DNA of 64,000 nt. It comes from an uncultured Gammaproteobacteria bacterium (GTDB taxonomy: Bacteria > Patescibacteriota > Patescibacteriia > Magasanikbacterales > UBA922). Position numbers and translations under genes: made by a program. Positions 9,567 to 63,850 of this stretch are shown in pieces. The notes beneath the pieces are model-generated. The model made no database searches, was not told the origin of the DNA, and was given only the letters and a program-made list of their open reading frames with translations. The DNA lies in assembly GCA_964435035.1 (NCBI GenBank), contig CAYSXR010000001.1:144192-208191 (forward strand), written 5' to 3'. The stretch's first letter is position 1. Every line of letters starts with the position of its first letter.

Positions 9567-9580
9567 TTTAGTTAATTTAA

Positions 9581-10822
9581 ATGCCTGTTATGAAAATTAT
9601 TGAGATATTTGTGTGGTCAATTATAGTGACACTTGCTTTTGTCTACGCAGTAATTTTTCAGTGGATAATAAATCCACCCACTGTGCGAATGTCCAAGGTG
9701 GTTGCTCCAACTTCAACACCTGAAAATCAATTAGTAGAAAATGCTGAGAAAAAAGAGGGTATATGGGCTTTGCGATGGAAAGATGGTGAAGGTGAGGTAA
9801 TTCTCACAACATCAACAAATAAGAATGCGTGGTTAGGTTATTATCCAGATTCACTTGTTGTGCACTATAAGAAAGAAAACAAAGATCTTGTAGCTTTTTT
9901 CAAAGAGACCATAAGTCTTAAAGATGACACAAATATAATTTCTCATCAGCTTGTTTTGTTTGATGTGCTTACTAAAAAATCGAGTATTATTTTTGAATTA
10001 GAAAAGAAGGAGGGTGTTGTACCGCAGCAATTGGTATTAATTGGTGATACGGTGTACTTCTCTTTTACACGTGGGGAAGATGTGCTTGATAATAGTGTGA
10101 ATTATATCGATCTTTCAGAAAATAACATTTCGGTAAAAAAAATAATGGCTTCGGGTGCGAATCATTTGATTCAAAGATGGGGATATTATTGGTTAGAGGG
10201 TGGGTATGGGCATGCGGGAGCGTATGATAGTACTATGGTTTTTTTTGACACCGTTTCAAAGAAAACGGGTGAAGTCATTATTAGTGGATATGGGGGTGAG
10301 GAAGGATCGGATCTATTGGGTGTGACAAAGGATGGCATGGTTGTAATAGGATTTAAAAAGGAAGTAGGGGAAGAAGGGGGATGGGATATCACTGTTTATA
10401 ATAAGGTAACTACACATTTATTGAATAATGAAAATAAAAATACTGTAACACTCTTTGACGTAAGCGACATGCCGACGAATGTAGAAGATATTTTTTATAG
10501 AGAGGAAGAAAATGACCTATACTTAGTAGGTGATGAAGTGTGGTTATATGATTTTGATACCAAAAATACGGTAAAGATACGTCTCGATCAAAGTATGGTA
10601 GGTTTACGTATAACAAAATTTTTCGAGGGAGGTAGAAAGGTATGTTTGAGCAGTAGTCGATCCTGGAATGTAGGGGTACGCGCAATATGGAATACAGAAA
10701 ATAATTCAGTAGACTATTCTGATGTTTTATCATGCGAATCAAAAGCAGAAGATGAATCTATCAAAGCTCATTCGTTATTGCGTGAAGAGCTACCATTACA
10801 ATTGGAAGTTGTGGAAATATAG
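9581..10822 (+). CDS. Hypothetical membrane-anchored protein
   Basis: 413 aa with an N-terminal TM helix and then a beta-rich extracytoplasmic region. No recognised motif. Confidence 0.6.
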   Translation: MPVMKIIEIFVWSIIVTLAFVYAVIFQWIINPPTVRMSKVVAPTSTPENQLVENAEKKEGIWALRWKDGEGEVILTTSTNKNAWLGYYPDSLVVHYKKENKDLVAFFKETISLKDDTNIISHQLVLFDVLTKKSSIIFELEKKEGVVPQQLVLIGDTVYFSFTRGEDVLDNSVNYIDLSENNISVKKIMASGANHLIQRWGYYWLEGGYGHAGAYDSTMVFFDTVSKKTGEVIISGYGGEEGSDLLGVTKDGMVVIGFKKEVGEEGGWDITVYNKVTTHLLNNENKNTVTLFDVSDMPTNVEDIFYREEENDLYLVGDEVWLYDFDTKNTVKIRLDQSMVGLRITKFFEGGRKVCLSSSRSWNVGVRAIWNTENNSVDYSDVLSCESKAEDESIKAHSLLREELPLQLEVVEI

Positions 10823-15324: not shown

Positions 15325-15353
15325 TTGACAAATTGTCTCACGTGTGATACTAT
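15325..15353 (+). promoter_or_regulatory. Sigma70-type promoter (TTGACA-17-TACTAT)
   Basis: ttgaca at 15325-15330, a 17-nt spacer, then tactat at 15348-15353. Located 78 nt upstream of the GC-rich CDS at 15431. Confidence 0.6.
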
Positions 15354-15430
15354 TTTACATTCCAAGTGAAGAGGCGTCTGCCTTTTTACCTCTGGGATAT
15401 AACAAGATCCTTAGGTTATAGGTGTAACTC

Positions 15431-15772
15431 ATGGCTCGTTTGATCGACATGTACTTCACTGCCCCCGTGGTCAACCACTGGACTACCTTCTACGAGAAGG
15501 CGTTCATGGGGGAGCTGATCATGGTTTACATCCATGGGGTGGGACGTCGCTGGGTACTTCTCCAGGACTTTCGCAGTAACGAGGAGGCTAAGAAACTTGA
15601 GTTCAGGGTACAGATTGTGCCGGAGCCGGGTAAAAAAAACCGGGACTCGATACCAAACAGCTGGTTTACTGGCACCTACTCCTGGGAGACCAACGATGGT
15701 TACCTCAAACTGCCGTCGGTTATGCGGCCATTGCCGTCGGTTATCCTCTCAAGCTGGATCAACCACGCCTGA
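15431..15772 (+). CDS. Hypothetical protein, GC-rich islet gene 1
   Basis: 113-aa ORF with GC-biased codons unlike its neighbours. Own promoter and downstream terminator. No recognised motif. Confidence 0.55.
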   Translation: MARLIDMYFTAPVVNHWTTFYEKAFMGELIMVYIHGVGRRWVLLQDFRSNEEAKKLEFRVQIVPEPGKKNRDSIPNSWFTGTYSWETNDGYLKLPSVMRPLPSVILSSWINHA

Positions 15773-15784
15773 GGCAATAGCACA

Positions 15785-15841
15785 CCCGACGCGTGCACAA
15801 GATTTGTTCCCACATGGGCACAAAATCGCGCACGCGTCGGG
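15785..15841. repeat. Nested GC-rich inverted repeat (cruciform/hairpin)
   Basis: Perfect 12-bp arms cccgacgcgtgc / gcacgcgtcggg enclose an inner hairpin tttgttccca-ca-tgggcacaaa. Confidence 0.7.
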
Positions 15842-15849
15842 AACAATCT

Positions 15850-15880
15850 ACCCTATACCATGATTGGTATGGGGTTTTTG
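15850..15880 (+). terminator. Rho-independent terminator
   Basis: accctatacca-tga-ttggtatggggt hairpin followed by ttttt. Confidence 0.65.
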
Positions 15881-15975
15881 TTTACAAAAATATTTTTTAC
15901 ACGTAAAATATCTCACGTTGATTCTGCAATACATAGTGCAGAAATGGCTCCATCGAAAAAGAGGGGGTTCGCAAA

Positions 15976-16392
15976 ATGGTCTACGATAAAAAATACTCGG
16001 TCGTGCACGAATGGCTGAGACGATTCAATCTGCATGAGGTGGAAGGTCTCCTGGAGCTCTACGTTGAGAAGCCCGCTCATACCTCTATGGATATCAAAAA
16101 AGCACACCCGAAGACGTACGGCACTATCTATGGAAGGACCCCGCTGTCCCAGTGGTGGTACCGGTGCTTCGAGTGCGATCCGAATCTCAGGTACGAGATG
16201 GATCTGTACCTCTCGTCTGGAGGAGACACTGCAGTACTCGTCTACTTCGAGGGGGTCGGTGGTGGAAATCCTCCAGCACATCGGATGATCACCTTCACCT
16301 TCGAGGGTCTCCTGATCAAGAGTACGAAGACTGAAGATGTGGACGATCATAGTTCACACATTCGTGGTGCAATCAACCCACGAGCCAACTGA
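15976..16392 (+). CDS. NTF2/SnoaL-like fold protein (tentative), GC-rich islet gene 2
   Basis: 138 aa. The N-terminus EWLRRFNLHEVEGLLELYVEKP resembles the SnoaL/NTF2-like helix pattern. SD agaggggg and a tttaca-17-taaaat promoter lie upstream. Preferred over the antisense ORF 15913-16350. Confidence 0.5.
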   Translation: MVYDKKYSVVHEWLRRFNLHEVEGLLELYVEKPAHTSMDIKKAHPKTYGTIYGRTPLSQWWYRCFECDPNLRYEMDLYLSSGGDTAVLVYFEGVGGGNPPAHRMITFTFEGLLIKSTKTEDVDDHSSHIRGAINPRAN

Positions 16393-36819: not shown

Positions 36820-36917
36820 AAAACAAAAGACCCTTAGTGTGTCCGGCGCGGCAAGGGAGCGAAGGAGGGGGCGCTCCCGCCATCGCCAAACACACTAAGA
36901 GTCTTTAAGTGTTAGTA
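36820..36917 (-). ncRNA. Candidate small RNA: GC-rich long hairpin with C-rich apical loop
   Basis: Minus-strand TTGACA (36948-36953) with an 18-nt spacer to TACTAT (36924-36929). Then a hairpin of about 67-80 nt (10-bp cuuagugugu/acacacuaag base, gggagcg/cgcuccc top, loop CCCCCUCCUU), followed by UCUUUUGUUUU. Confidence 0.4.
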
Positions 36918-37093
36918 TACAAAATAGTACCATCCCAGAATAAGACGTGTCAAGGGTAATTAAGCGAAAAAAATTCTTATTTTTAGGGGATTGTAAACTG
37001 TATACTAATTAGATAGTAAAAAATTTTTAAGTATTAGTTTATGTAATAATTTCACCGGGAATATTACGTATGAAGTGTTGCTGTGTATAAAAT

Positions 37094-39198: not shown

Positions 39199-39651
39199 TT
39201 AGTCGTCTCTTCCGTGCTTCAATATTCGTTGGAGCGATCGTTTGCTCTCTCGTTCTTTTATCGTACGGCGCTTGTCATGGGTTTTTTTACCTTTGGCAAT
39301 ACCGATCTCAAGTTTGATTAAAGTTCCCTTAGTATAGAGGGAAAGTGGCACGATTGTCAAGCCTTTTTCCTCGGTTTTTCCGCGTAAATAATTGATTTCT
39401 TTGGTACTCAAAAGTAATTTTCTGGTGGCATCGGGGACATAATGGGGATTGGTCGCGTACCGATAGGCTCCAATATGCATGTTTACGATTGTCGCACTTC
39501 GGCCTCTCACCATCACAAAACTCCCGTCTAATTTGGCACTGCCATTGCGGATAGATTTTACCTCGGCTCCAGTCAATACCAAACCTGCCTCGAGACTCTC
39601 AAGGATTTCATAGTCGAATCGTACTTTTTTATGAGTGGCGAGTGTAGGCAT
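39199..39651 (-). CDS. smpB: SsrA-binding protein SmpB
   Basis: ATHKKVRFDYEILESLEAGLVLTGAEVKSIRNG. Start moved to ATG 39651 because a ttgcaa-16-tatact promoter lies inside the longer ORF. Confidence 0.88.
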   Translation of the reverse strand: MPTLATHKKVRFDYEILESLEAGLVLTGAEVKSIRNGSAKLDGSFVMVRGRSATIVNMHIGAYRYATNPHYVPDATRKLLLSTKEINYLRGKTEEKGLTIVPLSLYTKGTLIKLEIGIAKGKKTHDKRRTIKERESKRSLQRILKHGRDD

Positions 39652-43399: not shown

Positions 43400-46240
43400 A
43401 TGGTAGCGATATCCCCCGAACAATCAGTACCGCAAGAATCACGAAAGAAAAAAACACCTGATACGGTAAAAATAGAGAAATATAGTGAGGTGTGGGAGCA
43501 TGCAAAAAATCTGGAGGGTAAAATAAAAAAACTCAAAGAACATGCAATCGATGCGGATGAAATCGGAGAAATAGAAGGTATTCTCAAAGATGCAAAAGGA
43601 TATTTTTCTAGATTTGGAGAGAAAAAAGATAAAGGCAGAAGTGTTGCTCAGCTTGAAGAGAGGCGTAAGGCTGCAGTAGAAAAACTTACTGACCTTAATC
43701 GGCGCATGGTGTCGATGCTTGAAAAATTAGGACAACCAATTCCTAATACTCTTTTGTCGTACAAAGACAGTGGATTTGTTGATATTGTAAAAGAATCTAA
43801 TAAAGAAGGGTTGTCTGAAGAAAAAAAAGAAGAAGTGTCTGAAGTTGTGGGTGCTCATATAATTCAGCCCCCTGAAAATTATTCTAAAGAGTCATTGGGT
43901 GATTCAGAAATTGGTGGTGTGAATAGTATCGAGGCGCCAGAGAAGAAGGAAGAAGTGTTGGTTTCTGCCGAAGAGTCGCCTGTAAATGTACGAGAGGAAT
44001 CATCCTCACCTGAAACACCAATAGAAGATGTTATCAAGATTTCTTCAGGAGGAAAAACATATGAATTCGGCTGGCACGAACAGGTGGTTTACACTACTGC
44101 AAAGGGTAAGCAGCTTGAGTGTATTGTGCTTGGAAAATCAAATGATGAGAATAAGCCGGGGCTTATTTTGAAAGATCTTGAAAAAGGAAAAGTATTTGCT
44201 CTTGGTGCAGATGCGGTTGCAAAACGGGTACATGTTTCTGATGGTGAAATAGTTTCTCCACGTGTAGAAAATAATAAGGCCGATTCTGGTCAATCTGCTG
44301 AAGGTGAAGATATTGATAGAGAAGAAAAAGCTGCTCTTGAAAAAATGAAAAAAGACCAGAGGGAAGTAGAAGAGAAAAAAGCTCAAGAATTAAGTGAATT
44401 ATTAGCACAAGCTGGAAAGTCTGCCGAAGATGACACTTCATTTGTACACACAAGCACAGATGAGAGGGGAAGTTTCGATCAGAAGATGGTTGATAAACTT
44501 GTAGCTGATGGATCGATTGAAAAAATTAACACGTTATTGAAAAATAAATCCGAGGTGTGGGTACAGGAAGATGGTAAATGGTATCAGGGTGTAGTGCAAG
44601 ATATTACCGGAGCACAGGTGGGTGTTACTGTAGGAGAGGAGGGTCGAGAGAAAAAATATTTCTATGTGGATGCTGAAGAATTTTTGGGCATGCAGGATCG
44701 AGCGAAAAAATTGTTGAAATACAAAAAAGAATTAGAGCTTCCCTCGGTGGTGGTGGACACCGAATTCCTCGCTCGTCCAGATACGATCACCAAAGGTGAA
44801 ATTTTTACTCCTCCGACCGAGAGAAAGACCGTACCTGACGTGCCTCTAGTGAGTATTGATACTCCATTGCCGGTACGAGAACGAAAAACCTACCCAGAAG
44901 TTTCAGAAAAAAAAGCAATACAGATGATTCAATCAGTCGCTGAAGAATTTGAAAAAACATGGAAAGGAATGCGCATGATGACGACAGAAAAACAAAAGAC
45001 CGGATGGCTCCAGAGTAAGGAAGTTGAACGAGAGATGACGGTGACAGAAAAAAAGGAGCAATTAGAAGCGTGGCTTGATATGGTGGAGCAGGCATTTGAT
45101 TCACTCGACAAGCAAAAAGATGGGACACACATGGAAAAACCAGTACTCATGTGGCATCAGGCACAGGCATTAATTCGCGCATTAGAAAATGAACTTCGGT
45201 ATACAGAAGAAACGAATAAAAGTGAAGAGTGGGATCACGCACTTGAGGCTTTTAGTAGTATAATTAATGAAAGAAGCACACGTCTCAAGGAAAAAAAGAA
45301 AGGGTCATTGATTGCACCGTGGGCCATGAAAACGACACTTGCTGCCTTGGGTGCTTTTGCAATCGGAAATGCAACAAACAATCGAATAGAAGATGTGGCT
45401 GCAGTGAGTGAACGATATATGGAAGCAGGTGAAAAAAAATATGAATTACCCAGAGAAGAACATACGGGTGATGCACAGAGAAATATGCTAGATTTTGTAA
45501 TTAATATGAATCGGATGATAAACGAGCCCACACTTTCGATAACACCCGTTGCAATTGATGCTCGACTTACTCCACAGATCAAGGATAAAATATCAGGGAA
45601 AGTTCCGGGTTTGGCTGGTGCAGAAATAGCATCTGATGGAAAATCAGTTACATTGACTTTTGATAATAACCAAACAGTTGAAAGTCGTCCTGAAAAAATA
45701 CAAAAGTCGGGTCGCGATAGTTGGAAACTGAAGACAGCTGAGAAAAAGGGTCCGGAGTATGGCGAACAAATGTTGAGAGAATTAAGGAAAGTATTGGGTG
45801 AAGTAAAGCAAGAGTTTCCTGATATGTTTCGTGGACCAGAATCATCTTCCAAGCAAAAGAGAGTAGTAAGAACAGTAGTACAGGCCGAAAAGAAATTACG
45901 AGAAGCAGAGGTAGTAATACCGAGAAGTGGTGAGGCGAGAAGACAGTTGGAACAAGTAAAACAGGTGTTGGAACAAGTAAAACCAGGACTCGAATCTATT
46001 TCAAAAGAGATTGTAGATGAGATTAAGGCAGAGGATCTCGAATTGCCACAGGATGTATTTGTGCGTTTTAGTCGAGAGGTTACGTTTGATCCAAAGGCAG
46101 ATGCTCTATTTGAGGAATGGGGAAATGCACGAAATTCTCTCAAAGCAGCACAGGAAGCAGGAGATCAAGAGGGGGTAAAGAAAAGTAACGAGGAGTTGCG
46201 TAAGGTTATTGAAAAAATAACGAAAGAGTATAGTAAATAA
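43400..46240 (+). CDS. Large charged hypothetical protein with two SH3/Tudor-like beta segments
   Basis: About 946 aa, rich in Lys/Glu coiled-coil-like stretches, with one central hydrophobic segment (TTLAALGAFAIGNA). ATG 43400 preferred over GTG 43394. Confidence 0.6.
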   Translation: MVAISPEQSVPQESRKKKTPDTVKIEKYSEVWEHAKNLEGKIKKLKEHAIDADEIGEIEGILKDAKGYFSRFGEKKDKGRSVAQLEERRKAAVEKLTDLNRRMVSMLEKLGQPIPNTLLSYKDSGFVDIVKESNKEGLSEEKKEEVSEVVGAHIIQPPENYSKESLGDSEIGGVNSIEAPEKKEEVLVSAEESPVNVREESSSPETPIEDVIKISSGGKTYEFGWHEQVVYTTAKGKQLECIVLGKSNDENKPGLILKDLEKGKVFALGADAVAKRVHVSDGEIVSPRVENNKADSGQSAEGEDIDREEKAALEKMKKDQREVEEKKAQELSELLAQAGKSAEDDTSFVHTSTDERGSFDQKMVDKLVADGSIEKINTLLKNKSEVWVQEDGKWYQGVVQDITGAQVGVTVGEEGREKKYFYVDAEEFLGMQDRAKKLLKYKKELELPSVVVDTEFLARPDTITKGEIFTPPTERKTVPDVPLVSIDTPLPVRERKTYPEVSEKKAIQMIQSVAEEFEKTWKGMRMMTTEKQKTGWLQSKEVEREMTVTEKKEQLEAWLDMVEQAFDSLDKQKDGTHMEKPVLMWHQAQALIRALENELRYTEETNKSEEWDHALEAFSSIINERSTRLKEKKKGSLIAPWAMKTTLAALGAFAIGNATNNRIEDVAAVSERYMEAGEKKYELPREEHTGDAQRNMLDFVINMNRMINEPTLSITPVAIDARLTPQIKDKISGKVPGLAGAEIASDGKSVTLTFDNNQTVESRPEKIQKSGRDSWKLKTAEKKGPEYGEQMLRELRKVLGEVKQEFPDMFRGPESSSKQKRVVRTVVQAEKKLREAEVVIPRSGEARRQLEQVKQVLEQVKPGLESISKEIVDEIKAEDLELPQDVFVRFSREVTFDPKADALFEEWGNARNSLKAAQEAGDQEGVKKSNEELRKVIEKITKEYSK

Positions 46241-46261
46241 CATTTTGATATAGAGAAGAAA

Positions 46262-46297
46262 AATCACTGATAGCAGTCGGTGATTTTTTGTTTTTTT
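46262..46297 (+). terminator. Rho-independent terminator
   Basis: aatcactga-tagcag-tcggtgatt hairpin, then ttttttgttttttt. Confidence 0.75.
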
Positions 46298-46416
46298 AAG
46301 GTGTTTGGGCTAGAAATGTGCTAAAAAGTATGAGAGTAGTCAAAAGGGGCTACACCCTTTACTTTTTGTCAAAATTTGCATAAAGTACGTTAATGCTTAT
46401 TGTGGCAGGGGTATAC

Positions 46417-46445
46417 TTGACAAAAAGGTATAAATATGCTATAGT
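46417..46445 (+). promoter_or_regulatory. Consensus sigma70-type promoter (TTGACA-17-TATAGT) driving the GC-rich island
   Basis: acTTGACAaaaaggtataaatatgcTATAGTac is near-identical in layout to the promoter at 63780-63808. Confidence 0.7.
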
Positions 46446-46655
46446 ACTGCGTTATTTCAAAAGCCCTACATAGGTCTTCGAAATAGCAATCCAGGGGCCC
46501 CATCAGAGAGGATATGTGTCCCTTCTGATGGAGTCCCTGGTCTAGGAGCTCCCACTGTGGCCCGTTCGGGCAATAGTGAGAGCCTTAGGCTCATTACAAT
46601 CGAAGAAGCTAGAACACGTGCCCCTATGAAAGGGGTGTAAACGAGGAGATCAGAA
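46446..46655 (+). promoter_or_regulatory. Structured 5' leader of about 200 nt
   Basis: Nested helices ccaggg[ccatcaga...tctgatgg]ccctgg, gcccg-tt-cgggc, gagcc-tta-ggctc, and cccct-atgaa-agggg just before SD gaggag. No known riboswitch recognised. Confidence 0.45.
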
Positions 46656-48104
46656 ATGATTGACCGCAACAAGAAGAGCAACAAGAAGAGCACGCCCGTG
46701 AAGGGCGGCGCTGCGGCGAACCCGCAGGCGATGGCAACCGTGGCGTCTCACAAGGACGACACGGCTCAGATCGATGTGGTGGTCGAGACCAATCCCGAGG
46801 CCGACAAGGTCGAGGGTGAGGTCAAGGCCGATGAAGAGGCGAAGGTCGAAGAGACCGTCGCCACCGCCCCGACCGAGAACGTCGAGAAGAGCGAGGAGCC
46901 GGCCGTTGTGGTCGACCCCGAGCCCGAGCTCGAGCAGAAGCGGAACTTCCGTAAGGAAGACCTCCGCCTCCGGTACAACGACAACCCGCAGGTGCTGCTC
47001 ACCTCCGCGGATCTCAGCGAAGAGGACAAGGTCCTCATCGGCGAGATCGCGAGCGAGCAGAACCAGGTCGTCCGCGACTATGCCGCGCTGGCACAGGAGC
47101 TGACCGACGAGAAGGACCAGCTCGAGCAGAAGCTCGACGCGACCAACTCCAAGCTGGGGAACGTCACCAACCTCATCGCGACCACGGTCAAGGAGACCGT
47201 GGGACAGGTGGACAAGGAGACGTCGGCCTTGATCGAAGGTCTGAAGATCGAGATCGAGGGCGTCATCGGCAAGGGTAACGGCGTGAAGAACGCCGTCACG
47301 AAGATCGGGGACGATGTCAACAAGGACATCGGCTCGCTCAAGGGTCAGGTCAACGCCAACGCCAAGTCGGTCAACGACAAGGTCGATGGGATGGCCGCGA
47401 TGCTCGGGAAGATCGACGAGAAGATCTCCGAGATCAAGTCCCCGCCGCCCCCGCAGCAGCCGCCGGCTCAGTCCAGCACCACCCCGTCCTCCGGATCCTC
47501 CGGGTGGCCGTGGGTCGTGGCCGTGGGCATCTTGCTCGCGGCCGTGATCGCGGTCTTCCTCCTGAACAAGGATGTGAAGATCGAGGTCCAGGTGCAGCAG
47601 CCGGCGGTGAACACCGTGAAGGGTGTGGTGCCGCCGGTGGTGGACAACGCTCTCGGGGTGACCTCGCAGCAGGTGACCCCGGGTGGACCGGGGAATCCGA
47701 TCGTGCCCACGGTGGTCGGTGCCACGTCCGAGGATCCCTGCAAGGGGAAGGTCGGTGGGGAGCTCGGGTCGTGTGTCCTTCAGCTGGAGAAGTTCCGGCC
47801 GAAGGGGTTCACTGATGCGCACTGGAACACGGTCGTCGAGACCTTCCAGAACGTCATCATGGTCCCCTTGAGCGTTCCGTTCAAGGACATCAAGCACCAC
47901 GACAAGGCCATCGAGCACAACATGAGGAAAGACGCGGCACTGCAGGCGTGCGTCGACGCATACGTCTTGAAGACGGATGATGTCGAGTCGAACGTCCGGT
48001 GTCAGCGGGCGGTCGATTGTCTGTTCACTTCGGTGGACGAGGCAGCACAGTGCTACATGACGCATACGCGCTCGATCACGGGCGTTTTGGTCACTGTCAA
48101 CTGA
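46656..48104 (+). CDS. Bitopic membrane protein: acidic coiled-coil N-domain, Pro-rich linker, TM, Cys-containing C-domain (island gene a)
   Basis: 482 aa with an SD upstream. TM helix WPWVVAVGILLAAVIAVFLL. Seven Cys residues, all C-terminal to the TM. Extreme GC3 codon usage (AAG/GAG/GAC/AAC/ATC). Confidence 0.75.
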   Translation: MIDRNKKSNKKSTPVKGGAAANPQAMATVASHKDDTAQIDVVVETNPEADKVEGEVKADEEAKVEETVATAPTENVEKSEEPAVVVDPEPELEQKRNFRKEDLRLRYNDNPQVLLTSADLSEEDKVLIGEIASEQNQVVRDYAALAQELTDEKDQLEQKLDATNSKLGNVTNLIATTVKETVGQVDKETSALIEGLKIEIEGVIGKGNGVKNAVTKIGDDVNKDIGSLKGQVNANAKSVNDKVDGMAAMLGKIDEKISEIKSPPPPQQPPAQSSTTPSSGSSGWPWVVAVGILLAAVIAVFLLNKDVKIEVQVQQPAVNTVKGVVPPVVDNALGVTSQQVTPGGPGNPIVPTVVGATSEDPCKGKVGGELGSCVLQLEKFRPKGFTDAHWNTVVETFQNVIMVPLSVPFKDIKHHDKAIEHNMRKDAALQACVDAYVLKTDDVESNVRCQRAVDCLFTSVDEAAQCYMTHTRSITGVLVTVN

Positions 48105-48159: not shown

Positions 48160-49095
48160 ATGAAGCAGCTCGTCGCGAAGATCGTGGTTTATTACATCGT
48201 ACTTCTCTCGGCGTCGGCCTTCGGCTCGACGCCGAACCCCGGTGACCAGTTCGACCTGATCCAGGGAGGGATCCCGGCGAAGGTCGAGGTCACGCAGCAG
48301 GAGATCAAGGCGATGGACACGTCCATCGACCAGCTCCTGAAGCGCACCGGCGGTCTCCTCAAGAAGGACGCCGAGCTCAAGAAGGAGCTCGAGGACCTCA
48401 AGAAGGAGCTCGAGGACCTCAAGAGCAAGCTCGACAAGGTGGTGAAGCCGGGTGATCTCACGGTCATCCGAGTGGATCTGGGAAGGTTGTGGACGCAAGT
48501 CAACAACCATGGACAGCGCCTCACCGAGCTCGAGCAGGACGTCGAAGATCTGAAGAGGAGCGACAAGGCTCAGGACGATCGACTCGGTGATCACGACCAG
48601 AAAATCGAGGACATCAACAAGCGCCTCGATCGAGGTCTCGGAGTGAAGTTCGGCATCGGAGCCTATGGCGTCTACGGGACGCAAGGCTCGATCAACGGTG
48701 GAGCTTCGGCTCGGCTGAGGATCCCGCTGTCCGGTGGATGGCAAGCGATCGTCAATGGCGGAGTCGGCGGCAACCATCAGGGAGCTTCAGGATTCGCCGA
48801 TCTGTCGGTCGGCTACCAGTTCGCGAGCGGCATCTACCTGGGGGCAACCCTCGGTATCGACGCCAACTGCGACGGTATGTGCACCAGGCTCCTCACGGAG
48901 ATCTGGGGCGCAGGTCCCGACATCGGCTACCTGTCCGACGATGGACTCTTCATCCGGGCTCGTGTGCTCTTCGGGAGCGAGTGGATCAAGGGTCCGACGA
49001 TGCAGATCGAGTACCCGGATCGTACGGTCTTCAAGACCGACGAGTCCCGGGAGTTCGGCATCTCGGCTTTGATCCAGCTCGGTCACGAGTTCTAG
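48160..49095 (+). CDS. Signal-peptide protein with coiled coil and C-terminal OMP-like beta-barrel ending in Phe (island gene b)
   Basis: 311 aa with signal peptide ..LLSASAFG and heptads ELKKELEDLKKELEDLKSKLD. The last 150 aa or so have alternating Gly/aromatic beta-strand patterns and end ..ALIQLGHEF. Confidence 0.7.
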   Translation: MKQLVAKIVVYYIVLLSASAFGSTPNPGDQFDLIQGGIPAKVEVTQQEIKAMDTSIDQLLKRTGGLLKKDAELKKELEDLKKELEDLKSKLDKVVKPGDLTVIRVDLGRLWTQVNNHGQRLTELEQDVEDLKRSDKAQDDRLGDHDQKIEDINKRLDRGLGVKFGIGAYGVYGTQGSINGGASARLRIPLSGGWQAIVNGGVGGNHQGASGFADLSVGYQFASGIYLGATLGIDANCDGMCTRLLTEIWGAGPDIGYLSDDGLFIRARVLFGSEWIKGPTMQIEYPDRTVFKTDESREFGISALIQLGHEF

Positions 49096-49346
49096 ACTTC
49101 AAGATTCGGGGAGTGTCTCTACTCCCCGGACCCCTCACCTCGCCGACTTCAAGGCAGAAGGGATAAGACAATGAGACAAACACTCGAGTAAACGGCGTGG
49201 TCGCACAACGCGGCCCCCAATACTGGAGCATGGGCGATATTTCGAAAGAAATGTCGCCCCTCGCACAGCGTATATCAGTCTCTGGTATGCGATGACGAGA
49301 AAAGCATCTCACGTAAATCCCGACTAAATCGGGACACGTGACAAGC

Positions 49347-49375: not shown

Positions 49376-49498
49376 AAGCTGTTACAAAATAAAGAAGTGC
49401 CATGGGAAATCTCGATGTAGTCGGGGTATCTATGGTAGATCGTCATGCACTGCATGGTGGTCCATTGAACCTTACAATATATGCGAAATGTATAAAAA

Positions 49499-49543
49499 GC
49501 TTGAAAGGCTAGAAAGGCCGGAAAGGCTTGAAATGCTAGAGAA
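49499..49543 (+). repeat. Five tandem 9-nt repeats (GCYNGAAAG) in a 5' leader
   Basis: gcttgaaag gctagaaag gccggaaag gcttgaaat gctagagaa. Confidence 0.75.
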
Positions 49544-49551
49544 CGTATCTT

Positions 49552-49677
49552 GTGACGTGAAGAAAGAAATTTTCAATAAGAATTTTTTCTTAGCGTCACG
49601 AGGAGTTCTCAGGCGTGAAAACTTCTCGTGTGGTACACGAGGAAGCAACAACAAAACCCCGATTGAATCGGGGAGGA
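49552..49677 (+). promoter_or_regulatory. Leader with mutually exclusive hairpins and a hairpin abutting the SD
   Basis: gtgacg...cgtcac hairpin. cttctcgtg (49622-30) can pair with cacgaggag (49597-605) or with cacgaggaag (49636-45). ccccga-ttgaa-tcgggg overlaps the 5' edge of SD ggaggag. Confidence 0.45.
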
Positions 49678-49685
49678 GAAGAGTC

Positions 49686-51452
49686 ATGAAGAAGTTCAAC
49701 AAGTTCCTGTTCGTCGTCATGTTCATCTCGTTCGTCGCGGCCATCACGGGCTGCGCCGATCACGGTGGCGAGACGGTCGTCGTCAAGGGTGACGATGGGG
49801 AGAGCGTCAAGCTCTGCCCCGAGGAGCATCAGTGCTCCTCGGCCGAGTTCTGCAACTCGCAGGGTCTCTGCGTCATCCCCGGTGCCAACGGCACCAACGG
49901 CGAGGACTTCGAGCGATGCTCGAATAGTCGTGGTGACTGTGTCGGTAACGAGCTCTGCAACTCGCAGGGCGTGTGTGTGCTCGAAGGTCCGCAAGGGCCG
50001 GCGGGGGAGTCCTGTACCGTGTCGACGAAGGTCGACGGGTGCTTCTTCCTCTACTGTGGCGCAAGCGTCACGGAGATCTGCGACGGCGAGGACGGTGTGT
50101 CCTGCACGGTCGCAGGGCAGCCGGACGGCAGCGCTCAGGTCGAGTGCTCGGACGGTTCGTTCGCGACCATCCTCCCCGGACAAGACGGCGAGGACGGTCT
50201 CAACGGCACGAGCTGCACGGCCTCGACGGTCAAAGGTTGCCTCGTGGTGACCTGCGGAACGCAGTCGACGGAGATCTGCCCGGAGGATCTTCCGGATCCC
50301 GAGCCGGTCGACGGCTGCCAGAAGGACTCGGACTGCACGGACGGCAGCGAGTGCACCAACGACATCTGCGATCTCAACACCGGCACCTGCCGGTACGTGT
50401 CGCAGGTGTGTGATGACGGCGTCGCCTGCACCAACGACTGGTGTGACACGAACGGCTACTGCCGTTCGACCGCGGACAATGATCAGTGCAGCGGCGGCGA
50501 CTTCTGCTTGCCGACCGGTTACTGGTTTTGGTCCTCGGCGGTGGGTTCTGAGGAACTCGCTGACGGAGGCTGTTACGAGTGCCGCTGGGACTCTGATTGT
50601 GCCGACGGCGACGCGTGTACGGTCGACACCTGCGACGCGGGTGTTTGCAAGAAGGAAACGCGCGAGTGCCCCACGGGTGCGACGTGCGTCGAGTACTCGA
50701 GCAACTACTACGACGACTCGGAGTGGAACTACGTGTGCCAGGACAATCCGTCGTGCAGCAACAACAGCCAGTGCGACGACGGCAAGTACTGGACGACGGA
50801 TGCGTGCGTGGCCGGGGAGTGTGTCTACACCCAGGTGTCGTGCAACGACAACAACGCATGCACCGTGGACACGGTGAACTCGAGTGGGCAGTGCACCTAC
50901 GCCCAGATCTCGTGCGACGATGGCAAATCCGCCACGGTCGACACGTGCTCTGCGAATACGGGGTGCGTACACACGCCGGTGAACACCGGCTGCGAGCACG
51001 ATCTCGATTGCGATGACGTCGACGGTACGACCACGGACCTGTGCGAGGACAACGGGAGCTGTACACATACTCCCAATGCCCAGTGCAAGTCCCTGACGGT
51101 CAAGGTCGGCTGGGCCATCCTGTGGTCGCGCGGTCCCGAGATCGGAACCACCAATGTCCCGATGGGCAACTGGCGTAGCTGCGAGGAAGACGAGGCGGAG
51201 AACTGCCGTACCATGTCGTGGTGCGGTGACGACATCGTGGAGTTCAATGTTCAGCAGATGCCGAACGTGGCAGGTGCCGACTGGCTCGTGAAGAACGAGA
51301 AAGGCGACAGCCCTTGCACGTCGAACGCAGATGCGACCTTGAACTACACGCCCGCTGATCTCTTCGTCGGGGCGACGCCGGTGCAGAAGGGCTGTTCGCT
51401 CTTCTGCGACCCGAACGGGTACACCAACTACACCTGCGATTCCGCGGAGTAG
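49686..51452 (+). CDS. Cys-rich repeat lipoprotein (island gene c)
   Basis: Start MKKFNKFLFVVMFISFVAAITGC (lipobox) follows SD ggggaggag. Repeats of the form C.(D/N)D.C....G.C, resembling Dictyostelium-CTDC-type units. The ORF-track start at 49338 was rejected. Confidence 0.75.
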   Translation: MKKFNKFLFVVMFISFVAAITGCADHGGETVVVKGDDGESVKLCPEEHQCSSAEFCNSQGLCVIPGANGTNGEDFERCSNSRGDCVGNELCNSQGVCVLEGPQGPAGESCTVSTKVDGCFFLYCGASVTEICDGEDGVSCTVAGQPDGSAQVECSDGSFATILPGQDGEDGLNGTSCTASTVKGCLVVTCGTQSTEICPEDLPDPEPVDGCQKDSDCTDGSECTNDICDLNTGTCRYVSQVCDDGVACTNDWCDTNGYCRSTADNDQCSGGDFCLPTGYWFWSSAVGSEELADGGCYECRWDSDCADGDACTVDTCDAGVCKKETRECPTGATCVEYSSNYYDDSEWNYVCQDNPSCSNNSQCDDGKYWTTDACVAGECVYTQVSCNDNNACTVDTVNSSGQCTYAQISCDDGKSATVDTCSANTGCVHTPVNTGCEHDLDCDDVDGTTTDLCEDNGSCTHTPNAQCKSLTVKVGWAILWSRGPEIGTTNVPMGNWRSCEEDEAENCRTMSWCGDDIVEFNVQQMPNVAGADWLVKNEKGDSPCTSNADATLNYTPADLFVGATPVQKGCSLFCDPNGYTNYTCDSAE

Positions 51453-51669
51453 TCGTACCCACAAACATTTCGTGTAAAAGCTTTGAGTAGCCTAGCTACC
51501 AGACTCAAAGTTCAATCAACGTAGCGGGAGGGGGCACAAGCGTTCATCTGAATTGCGCAAGCGATTCAGTGACGAGTGCCTCCCTCCCATTCCAACATAT
51601 CTTTATCAAAATTCAGAACTCAGATTACAGTGAGAGACTAGTGAGTATTGGTAGAGAGATGTGGGGATG

Positions 51670-51727
51670 GAAAATTCAAAACTTAAAACTTAAAACTCAA
51701 AATTTAGATTTAAGTTGTGAGTTATTA
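51670..51727. repeat. A/T-word intergenic repeat (family C, copy 2) inside the GC-rich island
   Basis: gaaaattcaaaacttaaaacttaaaactcaaaatttagatttaagttgtgag. Confidence 0.55.
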
Positions 51728-51795
51728 CAAACCCTTTCCATCATTATGATGGTTTCAATTCCCCTCAACCGCGACGACAGAAATGTCACGCGCGG

Positions 51796-51821
51796 AAAAA
51801 ACCCGCGCATGCGGGTTTTTT
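51796..51821. terminator. Strong bidirectional terminator
   Basis: aaaaaacccgc-gcat-gcgggtttttt. Confidence 0.85.
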
Positions 51822-51913
51822 AAATTCCATTACCTCGGGTATATCGTATAATGATGGTATATCTATGGTAGAGGAATTCTACACGCCAGTTCACAAAAAC
51901 CAGGAGGGGACAC

Positions 51914-52651
51914 ATGTTGGGTATGACGTTTCGTTTGTTTGTTTTCTGTCTCACCGTGTTCACCGCCGCATGCATCGAGGATATGCGGCGGGAGGAAGCG
52001 TCCATGGTCCAGGTCGATACGTCGACTGGCATCATGGATATGGTGGAGGAAGTCAAAGACGTACCAGATTCACGGGTCCGTGATCGGTATGATATCGAAT
52101 TTCCTCCTACAGCCGACGAGTGTGTCGTCGATGAATTCATCGCAGAGGGAAGCCCTTGCGATGATGGCGATGCATGCACGATCGATGTCTGTATCCAGGG
52201 CATGTGTCGTAATCGAGCTATCGACTGCGACGACGGAAATCCCTGGACGGATGACGAGTGCATCGTCGACACTGGGGCGTGCTCCAGTGTACATCGGGTG
52301 ACTCATTTCACCGTTCGCGCGGAGCGTCCGGGAAAGGTGAAGCTTTGGTATGGGAATCACACCGAGCCAGAGACCTATCCCATGAACTCGAGCTTCGAGA
52401 TCCAGAAGATGGATCTCTGCGTCGAGAACCGTGTGCTCACGCTCGCGGTAGAGGACGAAGAGTTCCCGGGAACCTACTGGGGTTGTAACCCTGGCCTTCC
52501 TTCGAAGAGGGAACTCGCAGTCGAGATCGACGGGGTGGACACGCCCGGTTATTTCGCTGCGGATCTCGGATGGGAGGTGCCCAACTCTGCGTGTGGTGGG
52601 AAGGGAGAGGGTGACCTCTACTTCTTGCGGGCGCAACTCGCATGTGACTGA
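51914..52651 (+). CDS. Small Cys-rich lipoprotein sharing the C-terminal domain of gene e (island gene d)
   Basis: SD aggagggg upstream. Signal peptide ..LTVFTAAC. Two Cys-rich units (CDDGDACTIDVC, CDDGNPWTDDEC). The C-domain motif CNPGLPSKRELAVEIDGV matches CNPGFPSKSTLTVMVNGV in gene e. Confidence 0.7.
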   Translation: MLGMTFRLFVFCLTVFTAACIEDMRREEASMVQVDTSTGIMDMVEEVKDVPDSRVRDRYDIEFPPTADECVVDEFIAEGSPCDDGDACTIDVCIQGMCRNRAIDCDDGNPWTDDECIVDTGACSSVHRVTHFTVRAERPGKVKLWYGNHTEPETYPMNSSFEIQKMDLCVENRVLTLAVEDEEFPGTYWGCNPGLPSKRELAVEIDGVDTPGYFAADLGWEVPNSACGGKGEGDLYFLRAQLACD

Positions 52652-52998: not shown

Positions 52999-55041
52999 AT
53001 GCGTCTGAAGAACAACAACAACCGGATGTTCATCATCACGGTTGCCCTCGCCATGGGGTTCATGGCGGCGTGCACGGAACACGGCGGCGACGAGCCGATC
53101 GTGGTCGTGATGAAGGCGGACCTCGACCTCGACGAGGTCCCCAACAACGTCGACAACTGCCCGGGGGACAACAACCCCGATCAGTTGGACACCGACGGCG
53201 ACGGCATGGGCGATGCGTGCGACAACGACGTCGACGGCGACGGGGTCTTGAACCCCGCCGACAACTGCCCCGACAACTTCAACCCCGACCAGGCGAACCT
53301 CGACAAGGTCCTGGCCGACAGCGGCAACGTCACCGTGGTCGCGGATCTCTTCGGAGACGTCTGCGACAACGACGACGACGGCGACGTGGTCTGCGACCCC
53401 TGGCTCGGCGTGGACGGGTGGGAAGAATTCCATCCCGGTCAGGGCGAGACGTGTCAGGGCGAGGACAACTGTCCCGACGTCGCCAACGCCGACCAGGCGA
53501 ACCTCGACAAGGACTTCGAGGGCGACGTCTGCGACAACGACGTCGACGGCGACGGCGACCTCAACGGCGCAGACAACTGCCCGCTCGTGACCAACGCCGA
53601 CCAGGCAAACCTGGATCGGGACGACTGGGGCGACGCCTGCGACACCGACGACGACAACGACAGCTTCTGCGACGAAGCTGCCCCCGTCTCGATGCCGCGA
53701 AATGCGCCCGCGATGCCCCTCTGCGAGGGCGAGGACAACTGCCCCCGCTTCAAGAACGCGGGACAGGAAGACATGGACGAGGACGGCATGGGCGACGTCT
53801 GCGACGACGACTGCGACGGGGACCTCTACCCCGAAGCGTCGCCCTGGGATTTCCCCAACCTGTCGTGCTTCGTGTATTGCAATCCGGAAGGTCCGGGAAC
53901 CGAGTGCGACGACGCGAACACGTGCACCACGGACACCTGCAACGGGCAGGGCGTTTGCGAGTACGTGTTCACGCAGTCCGAGACGTGCGAATGCGTCTTG
54001 GACTCCGACTGCGAGCCGACCGACGCCTGCGTCACCGAGATGGCGTGCGTGGAAAACACGTGCGTCGAGACCGGATGGAAGGTCCTGACCGACGGGGACA
54101 ACTGCACCATCGACACCTGTGATCCCTCGACCGGCGTGGTCACCCACGTCGAGAAGGACTGTGGTGGGGACCTCTGCGGAGGAGGCCTCTCGTGTAACCG
54201 CATGACCGGAGAGTGCAGCACACCCGTGCCGCAAATTCCGATCAACGACAGCAACGCCTGCACCACCGACGCGTGCGATCCCGAGACCGGCGTGGTCACC
54301 CACGTCGCGATCGTCTGCGACGATGGGAACGCATGCAACGGCACCGAGACGTGCAACCCGGCTTCCGGGTGCGTCGCGGGTACGCCGCTCACGTGCGATG
54401 ACGGAAGCGTCTGCACGATCGACAGTTGTTCGGCAAACACCTGCCAACACGTGGCGGTGACGACGAACGACAACAACATGTGCACCACCGACACCTGCGA
54501 TCCCGAGATGGGGGTGCAGCACACGGCGGTGGTGTGCAACGACGTGAACTCCAACACCACCGACACCTGCGATCCGGCGACGGGTTGCGTGCACACGCCG
54601 ACGGGGAACTGCACGGTCAACGCGGATTGCAACGACAGCAATCCCCTGACCTACGACACCTGCGTCGCGCTCGTCTGCCAACATGTGGAAGGTGTCCGCG
54701 TGCAGGTCTCGTCGACCGACACGTCGGAGACCTGGCAGGTCAATTTCTACTACAACGGTACGACGATCTCCGGCAACCTGCCCTTCGACGGGACCTTGCC
54801 GAAGACGCTCGCATGCAGCTGGGGCGCCGACATCGCCGTCAACCGTCCGAGCACGAACTTGTTCTTGGACTGCAACCCGGGGTTCCCCTCGAAGTCCACC
54901 CTGACCGTCATGGTCAATGGTGTCACGAAGGCGAACGACTTCCAGGTTCGTTCGCAGGCATGCGACGGCGCTCCGCCGGGCAACCTGTGGCTCTCCGACG
55001 AGAGCGGTGACAACGACCTGGGATGCCCCGCGGCACCCTAG
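52999..55041 (+). CDS. Lipoprotein with thrombospondin-type-3-like Ca-binding repeats and Cys-rich repeats (island gene e)
   Basis: SD ggaggaagg, then MRLKNNNNRMFIITVALAMGFMAAC. Repeated DNCPxxxNxDQxDxDxDGxGDxCDxDxDGD units, then repeated CxxDxCDPxTGxxH units. The mature N-terminus CTEHGGDE resembles CADHGGE of gene c. Confidence 0.75.
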   Translation: MRLKNNNNRMFIITVALAMGFMAACTEHGGDEPIVVVMKADLDLDEVPNNVDNCPGDNNPDQLDTDGDGMGDACDNDVDGDGVLNPADNCPDNFNPDQANLDKVLADSGNVTVVADLFGDVCDNDDDGDVVCDPWLGVDGWEEFHPGQGETCQGEDNCPDVANADQANLDKDFEGDVCDNDVDGDGDLNGADNCPLVTNADQANLDRDDWGDACDTDDDNDSFCDEAAPVSMPRNAPAMPLCEGEDNCPRFKNAGQEDMDEDGMGDVCDDDCDGDLYPEASPWDFPNLSCFVYCNPEGPGTECDDANTCTTDTCNGQGVCEYVFTQSETCECVLDSDCEPTDACVTEMACVENTCVETGWKVLTDGDNCTIDTCDPSTGVVTHVEKDCGGDLCGGGLSCNRMTGECSTPVPQIPINDSNACTTDACDPETGVVTHVAIVCDDGNACNGTETCNPASGCVAGTPLTCDDGSVCTIDSCSANTCQHVAVTTNDNNMCTTDTCDPEMGVQHTAVVCNDVNSNTTDTCDPATGCVHTPTGNCTVNADCNDSNPLTYDTCVALVCQHVEGVRVQVSSTDTSETWQVNFYYNGTTISGNLPFDGTLPKTLACSWGADIAVNRPSTNLFLDCNPGFPSKSTLTVMVNGVTKANDFQVRSQACDGAPPGNLWLSDESGDNDLGCPAAP

Positions 55042-55226: not shown

Positions 55227-55248
55227 AACCGCACTATGCGGTTTTTTT
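55227..55248 (+). terminator. Rho-independent terminator at right edge of island
   Basis: aaccgca-cta-tgcggtt followed by ttttt. Confidence 0.8.
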
Positions 55249-55253
55249 GTTAT

Positions 55254-55355
55254 GTCATTCCGAGCGAGTGCACCCGAGCCGAGGAATCTTTCCTGTATAA
55301 GACCATGTAAGAAAGATTCCTCGACTCCCTCGGAGACTCGGTCGCTCGGAATGAC
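55254..55355. repeat. Palindromic MITE-like element (family D, solo copy)
   Basis: Perfect 14-bp termini gtcattccgagcga / tcgctcggaatgac and inner 13-bp inverted repeat cgaggaatctttc / gaaagattcctcg. Its arms match the arms of the copies at 61107 and 61583. Confidence 0.75.
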
Positions 55356-61106: not shown

Positions 61107-61244
61107 GTCATCCCGAGGGAGGAGTGCATCCGACGATTCGAGGGATCTTTCCTGCATAAGGCTGATTAGGAAAAATGTATTTAAAGCTTAGTAAGGACTT
61201 GGTAGGAAAGATTCCTCGACTCGGGTGCACTCGCTCGGAATGAC
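61107..61244. repeat. Palindromic MITE-like element (family D, copy 2)
   Basis: gtcatcccgaggga...tcgctcggaatgac. The right arm matches the reverse complement of the left arm of 55254-55355 with one mismatch. Flanks extend the inverted repeat (taatgt/acatta). Confidence 0.75.
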
Positions 61245-61287: not shown

Positions 61288-61566
61288 ATGAAAACATACT
61301 ATGTGTATATTATGTCGAGCATTAATCAAACACTCTATGTCGGTATAACCAATAATTTATTCCGTAGAGTTTTTGAACATAGGATGAAACTCAATGAAGG
61401 TTTTACAGAAAAATATCAGATATATAAATTAGTATATGCTGAATACTATACAAATGTGCAGGAGGCAATACGTCGTGAAAAACAAATCAAAAAGTGGCGT
61501 CGAGAGAAGAAAATCAAATTGATTGAAAAAGATAATCCCGATTGGGTGGATCTCGCAAGGAATTAA
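61288..61566 (+). CDS. GIY-YIG nuclease family protein (small, stand-alone)
   Basis: 92 aa: YYVYIMSS..QTLYVGITNNLFRRVFEHRMK...E...REKQIKKW. Confidence 0.8.
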   Translation: MKTYYVYIMSSINQTLYVGITNNLFRRVFEHRMKLNEGFTEKYQIYKLVYAEYYTNVQEAIRREKQIKKWRREKKIKLIEKDNPDWVDLARN

Positions 61567-61582
61567 TGGTGTGATTGGTATT

Positions 61583-61719
61583 GTCATTCCGAGCGACCGA
61601 GTCTTCGAGGGAGTCGAGGAATCTTTCCTGTATAGTATTCTGTAAAAAAATGTAACTATAGTTTGGTAAATACTTTGCAGGAAAGATTTCTCGACTCGGG
61701 TGCACTCACTCGAAATGAC
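61583..61719. repeat. Palindromic MITE-like element (family D, copy 3)
   Basis: gtcattccgagcgaccgagtcttcgagggagtcgaggaatctttcctg ... caggaaagatttctcgactcgggtgcactcactcgaaatgac. It has the same two arm types as the 55254 copy, in inverted order. Confidence 0.75.
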
Positions 61720-63754: not shown

Positions 63755-63779
63755 GTTTTAAGTTACATGGATTGAACAC

Positions 63780-63808
63780 TTGACAAAAGTATATAGATGT
63801 GGTATAGT
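63780..63808 (+). promoter_or_regulatory. Consensus sigma70-type promoter (TTGACA-17-TATAGT, TGn-extended)
   Basis: acTTGACAaaagtatatagatgtggTATAGTac, 43 nt upstream of ATG 63851. Confidence 0.7.
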
Positions 63809-63850
63809 ACGTTGTTCGTAATAATAATTTTACACACCCTAACCAATAGT

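Follow-up and report, generated by a model that had tools for sequence, protein, structure and literature searches.

The window analysed here is the whole 64,000-nucleotide (nt) stretch of contig CAYSXR010000001.1 (assembly GCA_964435035.1, positions 144,192–208,191 of the forward strand). Its guanine-plus-cytosine (GC) content is approximately 40%, and a block at 46.6–55.1 kb, hereafter the island, reaches 52–65%. The island comprises five genes on the plus strand (46.6–55.0 kb), and strong promoter-like sites are found in front of several of them. From the sequence comparisons described below, we find it probable that these sites are ordinary resident-type promoters in an old, vertically inherited locus, in which the use of GC-ending codons is confined to the coding sequence and held at equilibrium.

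Gene 1 (46656–48104) would encode a protein of 482 amino acids with a coiled coil, one transmembrane helix and a cysteine-containing C-terminal domain; the GC content at its third codon positions (GC3) is 0.88, and its 5′ half is hypervariable between strains. Gene 2 (48160–49095; 311 amino acids; GC3 0.81) combines a signal peptide, a coiled coil and a predicted eight-stranded β-barrel. Genes 3 (49686–51452; 588 amino acids; GC3 0.84) and 4 (51914–52651; 245 amino acids; GC3 0.65) correspond to lipoproteins with cysteine-rich CTDC-like repeats, and gene 5 (52999–55041; 680 amino acids; GC3 0.89) to a lipoprotein with thrombospondin type 3 (TSP3) and CTDC repeats. The gene upstream of the island is predicted to end at a terminator at 46258–46289. 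The first island transcription unit would start at promoter P1 and take in a leader and genes 1 and 2, and no terminator separates it from promoter P2. The second would run from P2 through leader 2 and gene 3 to a hairpin with a T-run at approximately 51800–51821, and gene 5 would be transcribed from promoter P3 up to a terminator at 55227–55243. A strong promoter is found at the start of three of the four predicted units; gene 4 is preceded by a perfect −10 hexamer only (TATAAT, 51847–51852), with a poor −35.

Five promoter strings had been singled out in a sequence-only reading of the window, and all were found in their places. P1 (46417–46445, plus strand) consists of the −35 hexamer TTGACA, a 17-nt spacer, the extended −10 element TATGC (of the form TRTGn) and the −10 hexamer TATAGT. 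P2 (49347–49375, plus) reads TTGACA-17-TATACT, likewise with TATGC, and P3 (52740–52768, plus) reads TTGACAAA-...-TGa-TATGTT, that is, TTGACA-17-TATGTT with the TG only. Two plus-strand sites of the same class were found at 63780–63808 (TTGACA-17-TATAGT, TGTGG) and 15325–15353 (TTGACA-17-TACTAT, TGTGA). The former is an ordinary resident promoter, facing a GT4 glycosyltransferase gene of GC3 0.35 with its ATG at 63851. All five have an exact TTGACA, a 17-nt spacer, TG at −15/−14 and a −10 hexamer matching at four or five of six positions, and all five are intergenic and face a downstream start codon, at distances from the −10 to the ATG of 42 nt (63780), 77 nt (15325), 210 nt (46417), 230 nt (52740) and 310 nt (49347).

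The motif TTGACA-N14-TGnTATAnT was matched three times in the window, compared with a mean of 0.00 and a largest count of 0 in 100 dinucleotide-preserving shuffles. The pattern TTGACAAA-N12-TGnTAnnnT was matched five times, exactly at the five flagged sites, against 0.00 in shuffles. A consensus so common in AT-rich DNA that its matches arise by chance, the outcome that the sequence-only reading had named as fatal to its proposal, was therefore not what the shuffles returned. In a mechanical scan of 44–64 kb, the sites at 46417, 49347, 63780 and 52740 were the top four of 36 sigma-70-like matches. By every sequence criterion applied, the five sites thus qualify as genuine sigma-70/sigma-A-type promoters, predicted to rank with the strongest in the window by consensus match.

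Further promoters were listed if they matched the consensus at 10 or more of 12 positions, with no more than one mismatch to TTGACA. On the minus strand, one such site (39331–39360) lies inside the 3′ end of smpB, approximately 150 nt upstream of the mature transfer-messenger RNA (tmRNA). Its counterpart in the related contig L005 (1913–1942) is identical to the window copy, spacer included. Other minus-strand sites precede a 39-codon basic open reading frame (ORF) and tRNA-Asp (at 36800), a small-RNA candidate (at 36953; TTGACA-18-TACTAT with TG), rpmI-rplT (at 37793; TTGACT) and tRNA-Lys (at 16780; TTGACT). The host pattern suggested by these sites is TTGACA(A), a gap of 17–18 nt often ending in TRTGn, and then TATAnT. 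Since it precedes housekeeping and stable-RNA genes, namely tmRNA, the ORF before tRNA-Asp and rpmI-rplT, as well as the small-RNA candidate and the glycosyltransferase gene at 63851, the island promoters appear to use the resident type. This agrees with the proposal of the sequence-only reading that the GC-rich coding sequences are driven by a resident-looking strong promoter.

The pattern resembles the extended −10 promoters of Bacillus subtilis and other Gram-positive bacteria, whose “−16 region” TRTGn was reportedly described by Voskuil and Chambliss in 1998. The likeness covers TTGACA, the 17-nt spacer, TRTGn directly before TATAnT and the A-rich stretch after the −35, as well as the occurrence before tRNA, tmRNA and ribosomal-protein genes, and no structural difference was seen. 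Unusual here are the conservation of the whole promoter and part of the spacer across lineages, and the 210–310-nt leaders that follow. These sites provide a first sketch of the promoter pattern for a Candidatus Magasanikbacteria-like organism.

Related copies of the island were recovered by exact-protein look-ups and with a 21-mer from the leader. Two Logan contigs (L003 and L004) are 100% identical to the window, and L006 represents a second strain of the same species. Further lineages are represented by L005/L009 (labelled “Candidatus Magasanikbacteria bacterium” at NCBI), L007/L011/L014, L008, L010, L015 and the distant L016. Island pieces were thus obtained from approximately seven lineages, both in GTDB genomes (DAORJA01, CAZMEW01 and CAYUTO01) and in Logan and JGI contigs of independent origin, and every recovered copy has GC-rich coding sequences, AT-richer spacers and the same promoters. 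The left flank is common to the window, L005 and L014, and consists of infC, smpB, several small genes and a gene for approximately 930–1200 amino acids (948 in the order infC-smpB-...-island), followed by the island. The recurrence in independent assemblies argues that the assembly is not chimeric, and the shared locus that the island is older than the split of these lineages. Resident genes compared between the window and L005 have synonymous divergences (dS) of 0.7–1.65 with ratios of nonsynonymous to synonymous divergence (dN/dS) of 0.03–0.28. For gene 1 the values are dS 0.48 and dN/dS 0.51, and its dN/dS is 0.5–0.75 across all lineages. Of note, the GTDB records L010 (CAZMEW010000013.1) and L011 (CAYUTO010000002.1), in which this island and its leader are also found, bear the title “uncultured Gammaproteobacteria bacterium”. 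These titles look like mislabels, the sequence being syntenic with the Candidatus Magasanikbacteria record.

Conservation across species was compared for P1 and P2. P1 orthologues in six further loci (L005, L006, L007/L011/L014, L008, L010 and L016) all retain the −35, the spacing, the TG and TATAnT, and their −10 varies at position 5 alone. P2 is retained in five further loci; L006, L011 and L010 differ from the window copy by between one and a few changes, and P2 is identical in L015, although gene 2 there has only 55–57% protein identity.

Both promoters are embedded in conserved non-coding sequence. An upstream box precedes P1 (46351–46414, plus strand; ACCCTTTACTTTT...AAATTTGCATA...GGGGTATAC); it is conserved, is also present in the distant L016, and is possibly an UP-element or an activator site. 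The leader core follows P1 (46451–46599, plus) and contains helix 1 (46451–46458 paired with 46480–46487), hairpin 2 (46492–46539), hairpin 3 (46540–46590) and then a conserved AUUACAA. A variable tail (46600–46655, plus) includes a hairpin at 46620–46636 and the Shine-Dalgarno sequence GAGGAG at 46643–46648. The region upstream of P2, which is also the 3′ trailer of the first unit (49097–49312, plus), contains several hairpins and no U-tract terminator. Leader 2 (49376–49685, plus; approximately 310 nt) is conserved in its 5′ part and includes a long hairpin at approximately 49536–49613. Within it, at 49480–49535, a short tandem motif (GAAAGGCT/GAAAGGCC) occurs in approximately four repeats, which are absent from the L007 orthologue. 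A trailer after gene 3 (51466–51824, plus) is partly conserved, being 76–89% identical to L011, and includes a bidirectional terminator hairpin at approximately 51787–51821.

Identity to the window in L005, L007 and L008, respectively, is 43%, 40% and 39% in the intergenic sequence left of the box (46241–46350), and 70%, 77% and 69% in the box itself. It reaches 82%, 97% and 97% in P1 and 84%, 81% and 85% in the leader, compared with 75%, 68% and 67% in gene 1. Gene 2 is 58% identical in L007 and 60% in L008, and the 3′ trailer (49097–49312) is 97% identical in L006, 93% in L007 and 81% in L008; L005 does not cover these two regions. Judged by these alignments, the non-coding modules are under stronger constraint than the island proteins.

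The leader core is nearly invariant in seven loci, and substitutions and insertions fall mostly in hairpin loops; in L016, loop substitutions and a loop insertion leave the stems intact. The predicted fold has a minimum free energy of −87.8 kcal/mol (z = −6.5 relative to shuffles), and helix 1 begins at the predicted 5′ end of the transcript (within approximately 0–3 nt). Compensatory covariation amounts to one or two pairs changed on both sides, most pairs being invariant, because the sequence is too conserved to provide sufficient variation. An RNA structure in the leader is therefore no more than likely. At the gathering score, Rfam 15 matched nothing in the whole window except tmRNA and two tRNAs, and no family was obtained when the leader, the trailer plus leader 2 and the segment at 36.4–37.8 kb were scanned with higher sensitivity; the best E-values for the leader and trailer (1.8–7) came from unrelated entries. 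Matches of leader 2 to miRNA families were dismissed, as they reflect its long hairpin only. No ORF conserved across loci was found in the leader or trailer, and a minus-strand ORF across the trailer was discarded on account of frameshifts and stops in L007 and L008. No additional copy of the upstream box, the leader or the trailer turned up in the window, and scans of metagenomes with two leader patterns, and of viral sequences, gave zero matches.

The leader and trailer thus stand as two candidate structured RNA elements absent from Rfam. The 5′ untranslated region (UTR) of Escherichia coli ompA and the B. subtilis aprE leader are known 5′-terminal stem-loop stabilisers of mRNA or long regulatory leaders. 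The likeness of the island leader to them lies in the 5′-terminal helix and in a long structured leader placed before genes for abundant envelope proteins. Sequence or Rfam relationship to either is lacking, the element here is larger (three helices, approximately 150 nt) and nearly invariant across lineages, and a comparable role would be assigned by analogy.

Compared with L006, the window shows 0 differences at 45601–46553, 25–40% differences at 46554–47300, near identity from there to 48100 and patchy differences in gene 2. The breakpoint falls within the conserved leader, and indels and all base classes occur among the differences. This mosaic is the pattern that alleles exchanged through homologous recombination would leave where selection is relaxed or diversifying. 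The hypervariable segment (46554–47300) matches only itself in the 64-kb window, with neither silent cassettes nor a template repeat, and the repeats within the island are intragenic protein repeats. The vls locus of Borrelia burgdorferi is a GC-rich locus in an AT-rich genome that is varied by gene conversion. Loci of that type share with the island the surface proteins, the high dN/dS, mosaic differences with identical flanks and a GC content above that of the genome. However, antigenic variation of the vls kind is not supported by the 64-kb window, in which no array of silent donor cassettes was found, and the GC excess of the island is confined to third codon positions. A further difference from loci that recombine between conserved flanks is that the anchors here are non-coding, RNA-like modules rather than flanking genes. 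A diversity-generating retroelement was likewise set aside, since no second copy of the variable segment was found in the window, a reverse transcriptase not having been searched for window-wide. Integron cassettes were dismissed because the trailers are unique, with no repeated attC-like family, no integrase domain was found in the island ORFs, and three of the four units have their own strong promoter.

The codon usage of the island is the reverse of that of its surroundings. GC3 is 0.65–0.89 in island genes, compared with 0.26–0.42 in 30 resident genes, with GC content at the first and second positions scarcely shifted. Isoleucine is encoded by ATC in 97% of cases versus 21% in resident genes, lysine by AAG in 94% versus 20% and phenylalanine by TTC in 93% versus 20%. 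Since GC3 is raised from the first 15 codons through to the last and is high across whole genes, the compositional step falls at the boundaries of the coding sequences, that is, at start and stop codons. In the relatives, every island gene scored has a GC3 of 0.74–0.90, and gene 1 one of 0.85–0.90 in all lineages.

Comparison of spacer and coding substitutions between related strains, as proposed in the sequence-only reading, showed that the coding sequences continue to change. Of 122 four-fold degenerate sites of gene 1, 44 differ between the window and L005 (36%), comprising 27 exchanges between G and C, 15 between G/C and A/T and two between A and T. In resident genes, 296 of 613 such sites differ (48%), with 25, 205 and 66 exchanges in the same categories. 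Four-fold sites therefore turn over yet stay G or C, with equal GC3 in all lineages, which points to a maintained equilibrium rather than to slow amelioration. Variable non-coding columns within the island have a GC content of 0.44–0.46, compared with approximately 0.9 at third positions, and thus the GC-ending usage is limited to coding sequence and maintained there. The most likely cause would be selection on the coding mRNA or its translation. As part of the same probable explanation, the codon usage would be neither a fading foreign relic nor the product of regional mutation bias. As to decoding, the 64-kb window contains tRNA-Lys(UUU) and tRNA-Asp(GUC) only.

Several points weigh against this explanation. 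Island non-coding DNA has a GC content of 0.42–0.53, compared with 0.21–0.35 for most resident intergenic regions, and a regional GC-biased process may contribute to the composition of the island. Conservation of the leader could reflect a constraint on the DNA or on protein binding and not RNA structure. The comparisons cover the 64-kb window and pieces of 8–11 kb from its relatives, and the Magasanikbacteria-like taxonomy derives from the name of one NCBI record.

The first of these points leads to a partial rival, namely a recombination hotspot with GC-biased gene conversion, which Lassalle et al. are said to have proposed for bacteria, or another regional GC-biased process that would make codon-level selection unnecessary. 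It would account for the mosaic divergence between strains with identical flanks as well as for the raised GC content of the island non-coding DNA, and the GC-rich Borrelia vls locus would offer a precedent in an AT-rich genome. Nevertheless, we regard it as unlikely, as the compositional step coincides with start and stop codons, the variable non-coding columns lack the GC bias of third positions and no donor cassettes were found in the window. To our knowledge, a shift in GC3 from 0.3 to 0.9 also far exceeds the effects of biased conversion reported for bacteria.

Ancient acquisition, with the spacers alone ameliorated and the coding sequences slow to follow, had been put forward in the sequence-only reading and is decidedly improbable. 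Its premise of long residence stands: the island is old, given that the same locus is found in L005 and L014 with flanks at the dS values quoted above, and the spacers are indeed far less GC-rich than the coding sequences. Selective amelioration, in contrast, does not. The non-coding sequence is conserved (P1 82–97%, leader 81–90%, trailer 81–97%) under constraint and is not drifting towards the resident composition, and the retention of G/C at four-fold sites despite 36% difference, together with the uniform GC3 of gene 1, describes an equilibrium and not a decay curve. In the amelioration model for horizontally acquired islands, reportedly introduced by Lawrence and Ochman in 1997, the island would be exceptional in having spacers AT-richer than its genes and a GC3 that does not decay despite saturated synonymous divergence of the flanks.

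More doubtful still is a recent horizontal acquisition, in which coding sequences without promoters would have come from a GC-rich donor, such as a bacterial host, and landed downstream of resident promoters. The island resembles acquired genomic islands in its sharp compositional anomaly, its atypical codons and its block of accessory surface-protein genes. Its codon usage is that of a genome with 65–70% GC, proteins with TSP3 and CTDC repeats are common in other phyla, and known hosts of Patescibacteria are GC-rich according to a recent preprint (bioRxiv 10.64898/2026.06.21.733656). Against this, the same locus, gene order and promoter-leader units are found in lineages with flank dS of 0.7–1.65, and turnover is seen at the four-fold sites. 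In every relative recovered the island is syntenic, and no integrase, transposase or other mobility gene was seen among its ORFs. A search of 5.8 billion proteins yielded four homologues for gene 1 and four for gene 2, and all six whose contigs were retrieved derive from these islands (one gene 2 match is untraced). When 1.84 billion representatives were searched exhaustively with an HMMER profile of the gene 1 alignment, seven proteins reached E ≤ 0.001. Three of these were members of the alignment, and two were short relatives of the C-terminal domain, of which one (P0131, in L016) is itself encoded in an island that has this promoter and leader. No donor homologue outside islands was thus found for genes 1 and 2, and the donor search with gene 5 gave repeat-level matches only (TSP3, CTDC), over at most 53% of its length. 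Among the usual marks of a horizontal island, atypical composition is present, and patchy presence or insertion at a tRNA or att site, donor homologues and drift towards the recipient composition were not seen. Capture behind resident promoters as a recent event, the other possibility raised in the sequence-only reading, is thus not supported, the promoter-leader-gene units being orthologous across lineages.

Equally hard to sustain is the literal reuse of a promoter cassette, in which the promoters would be copies of one duplicated element moved through the genome. The sites at 46417 and 63780 have 16 of 27 non-consensus positions in common, compared with 6–13 of 27 in the other 14 pairs of strong promoters, a resemblance estimated at roughly p = 0.004 for a single pair and marginal after 15 comparisons. 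P1 and P2 share TATGCTATA, and the next-best window matches of a profile of P1 orthologues are P2 (49345–49376, E = 0.006) and 63776–63809 (E = 0.04). These matches, however, cover only the core promoter of approximately 32 nt, and the leader and trailer are each present a single time in an island and are absent from the rest of the window. The spacer positions common to 46417 and 63780 are exactly those that vary among P1 orthologues (the distal spacer), and the shared features (the A-tract after the −35, TRTGn and TATAnTA) are consensus elements. Upstream of the two sites, local alignment scored 19, with shuffles averaging 12.8 and reaching 22, and a 13-mer common to both upstream regions (GTAGTCAAAAGGG) is not conserved in other lineages. 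The claim of cassette reuse thus found no homology upstream or downstream of the core to build on, and the resemblance is apparently a shared extended consensus and not a mobile or duplicated cassette. Finally, chance matches in AT-rich DNA or a chimeric assembly can be dismissed, for although weak (9/12) promoter-like matches are no commoner than in shuffles in two windows covering 1–40 kb and only moderately enriched in 44–64 kb (36 versus 24.2), the strong class has an expectation of 0.00, the same transitions from GC-rich genes to AT-rich spacers are seen in assemblies of different samples from Logan, JGI and NCBI, and two Logan contigs match the window fully.

In the favoured explanation of resident promoters in an old locus, RNA polymerase holoenzyme would bind the five sites directly. 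P1 would belong to a lineage-conserved module of upstream box, promoter and three-helix leader of approximately 150 nt, and P2 to one of conserved 3′ trailer, promoter and leader of approximately 310 nt. These modules would bracket five genes for surface or secreted proteins that evolve fast and exchange segments between strains, in a locus inherited vertically within a Candidatus Magasanikbacteria-like (Patescibacteria) clade. The 5′-terminal helix and the 3′ hairpins may protect or regulate the transcripts, the atypical codons may set or gate translation of the island mRNAs, and the conserved non-coding blocks could double as anchors for the homologous recombination that shuffles coding segments. 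The locus is an unusual variant of a hypervariable surface-protein locus, and the promoters themselves are textbook examples.

A foreign-looking composition is commonly taken as a sign of recent horizontal transfer. The island, with GC3 of approximately 0.9 in a genome of approximately 0.3, is old and syntenic, with no donor detected, and native promoters and conserved RNA-like modules lie in its spacers. Programs that call islands by composition would therefore mislabel it. The island accordingly offers a natural case for asking what can keep synonymous sites at a composition opposite to that of the surrounding genome, in a phylum for which codon usage was recently proposed to matter in host-parasite biology.

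The C-terminal 150 residues of gene 2 are predicted to form an OmpA/OmpX/Ail-like eight-stranded β-barrel on a coiled-coil stalk, which is unexpected for Patescibacteria, a group generally regarded as lacking an outer membrane. The structure model has predicted local distance difference test (pLDDT) values of 80–92 for residues 163–310, and the PDB structures that it matches best are those of OpcA, NspA, Ail, OmpW and the transmembrane domain of OmpA. Such a barrel in this lineage would fit a protein bound for the envelope of a host. A far-fetched extension is that the host-like G/C-ending codons of this surface-protein operon are an adaptation to a parasitic lifestyle, with translation gated by the supply of decoders, for example tRNAs or RNA from a GC-rich host. 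Strong constitutive promoters and protective leaders and trailers would then keep the mRNAs present, or, more radically, the genes might be meant for decoding by the host machinery. The preprint cited above (bioRxiv 10.64898/2026.06.21.733656) reports uptake of host RNA by Patescibacteria and codon usage complementary to GC-rich hosts. The resident genes here show the AT-ending usage of the phylum that the preprint reports. There, however, it is a genome-wide property, whereas the island shows the reverse, a few genes with host-like G/C-ending codons, and the passages on GC-rich hosts and codon usage make no mention of such genes. Apart from this preprint, nothing directly relevant was found in the literature on GC3-rich or codon-inverted genes in Patescibacteria or Magasanikbacteria, and a link between the codon usage of the island and host RNA uptake is speculation.

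Several further features were noted in the window. The promoter at 15325 precedes a small second locus of elevated GC3 (15325–16392), with one ORF of 113 amino acids (15431–15772; GC3 0.72; no Pfam match) and another of 138 (15976–16392; GC3 0.61; weak match to SnoaL_2), and GC3-rich genes follow four of the five strongest TTGACAAA...TGn promoters. On the minus strand, the segment 36610–36800 combines a strong promoter with the very basic 39-codon ORF (MGMRKKMRNKMKAQWKVDKVTRDKKKLKRVRKAAATAQK) immediately upstream of tRNA-Asp. The small-RNA candidate (36825–36953, minus), which has no Rfam match, would form a long hairpin of approximately 95 nt and end in a stem with a U-tract terminator.

A palindromic element resembling a miniature inverted-repeat transposable element (MITE; GTCATTCCGAGCGA...TCGCTCGGAATGAC) of approximately 100–140 nt is present in three copies, at 55254–55355, 61107–61244 and 61583–61719, with six matches to its termini versus 0.33 expected. 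The first copy lies at the right edge of the island and is the sole feature at either edge, and the other two flank an ORF for a GIY-YIG nuclease (61288–61566). The Logan contigs L001–L004 end within these elements. Lastly, long antisense ORFs in GC-rich genes, those of the window included, mislead gene callers, and this may explain the lack of a record in two look-ups with proteins of the window: in L014, the public gene call over gene 1 (8467–9987) is an ORF of 506 amino acids on the opposite strand.

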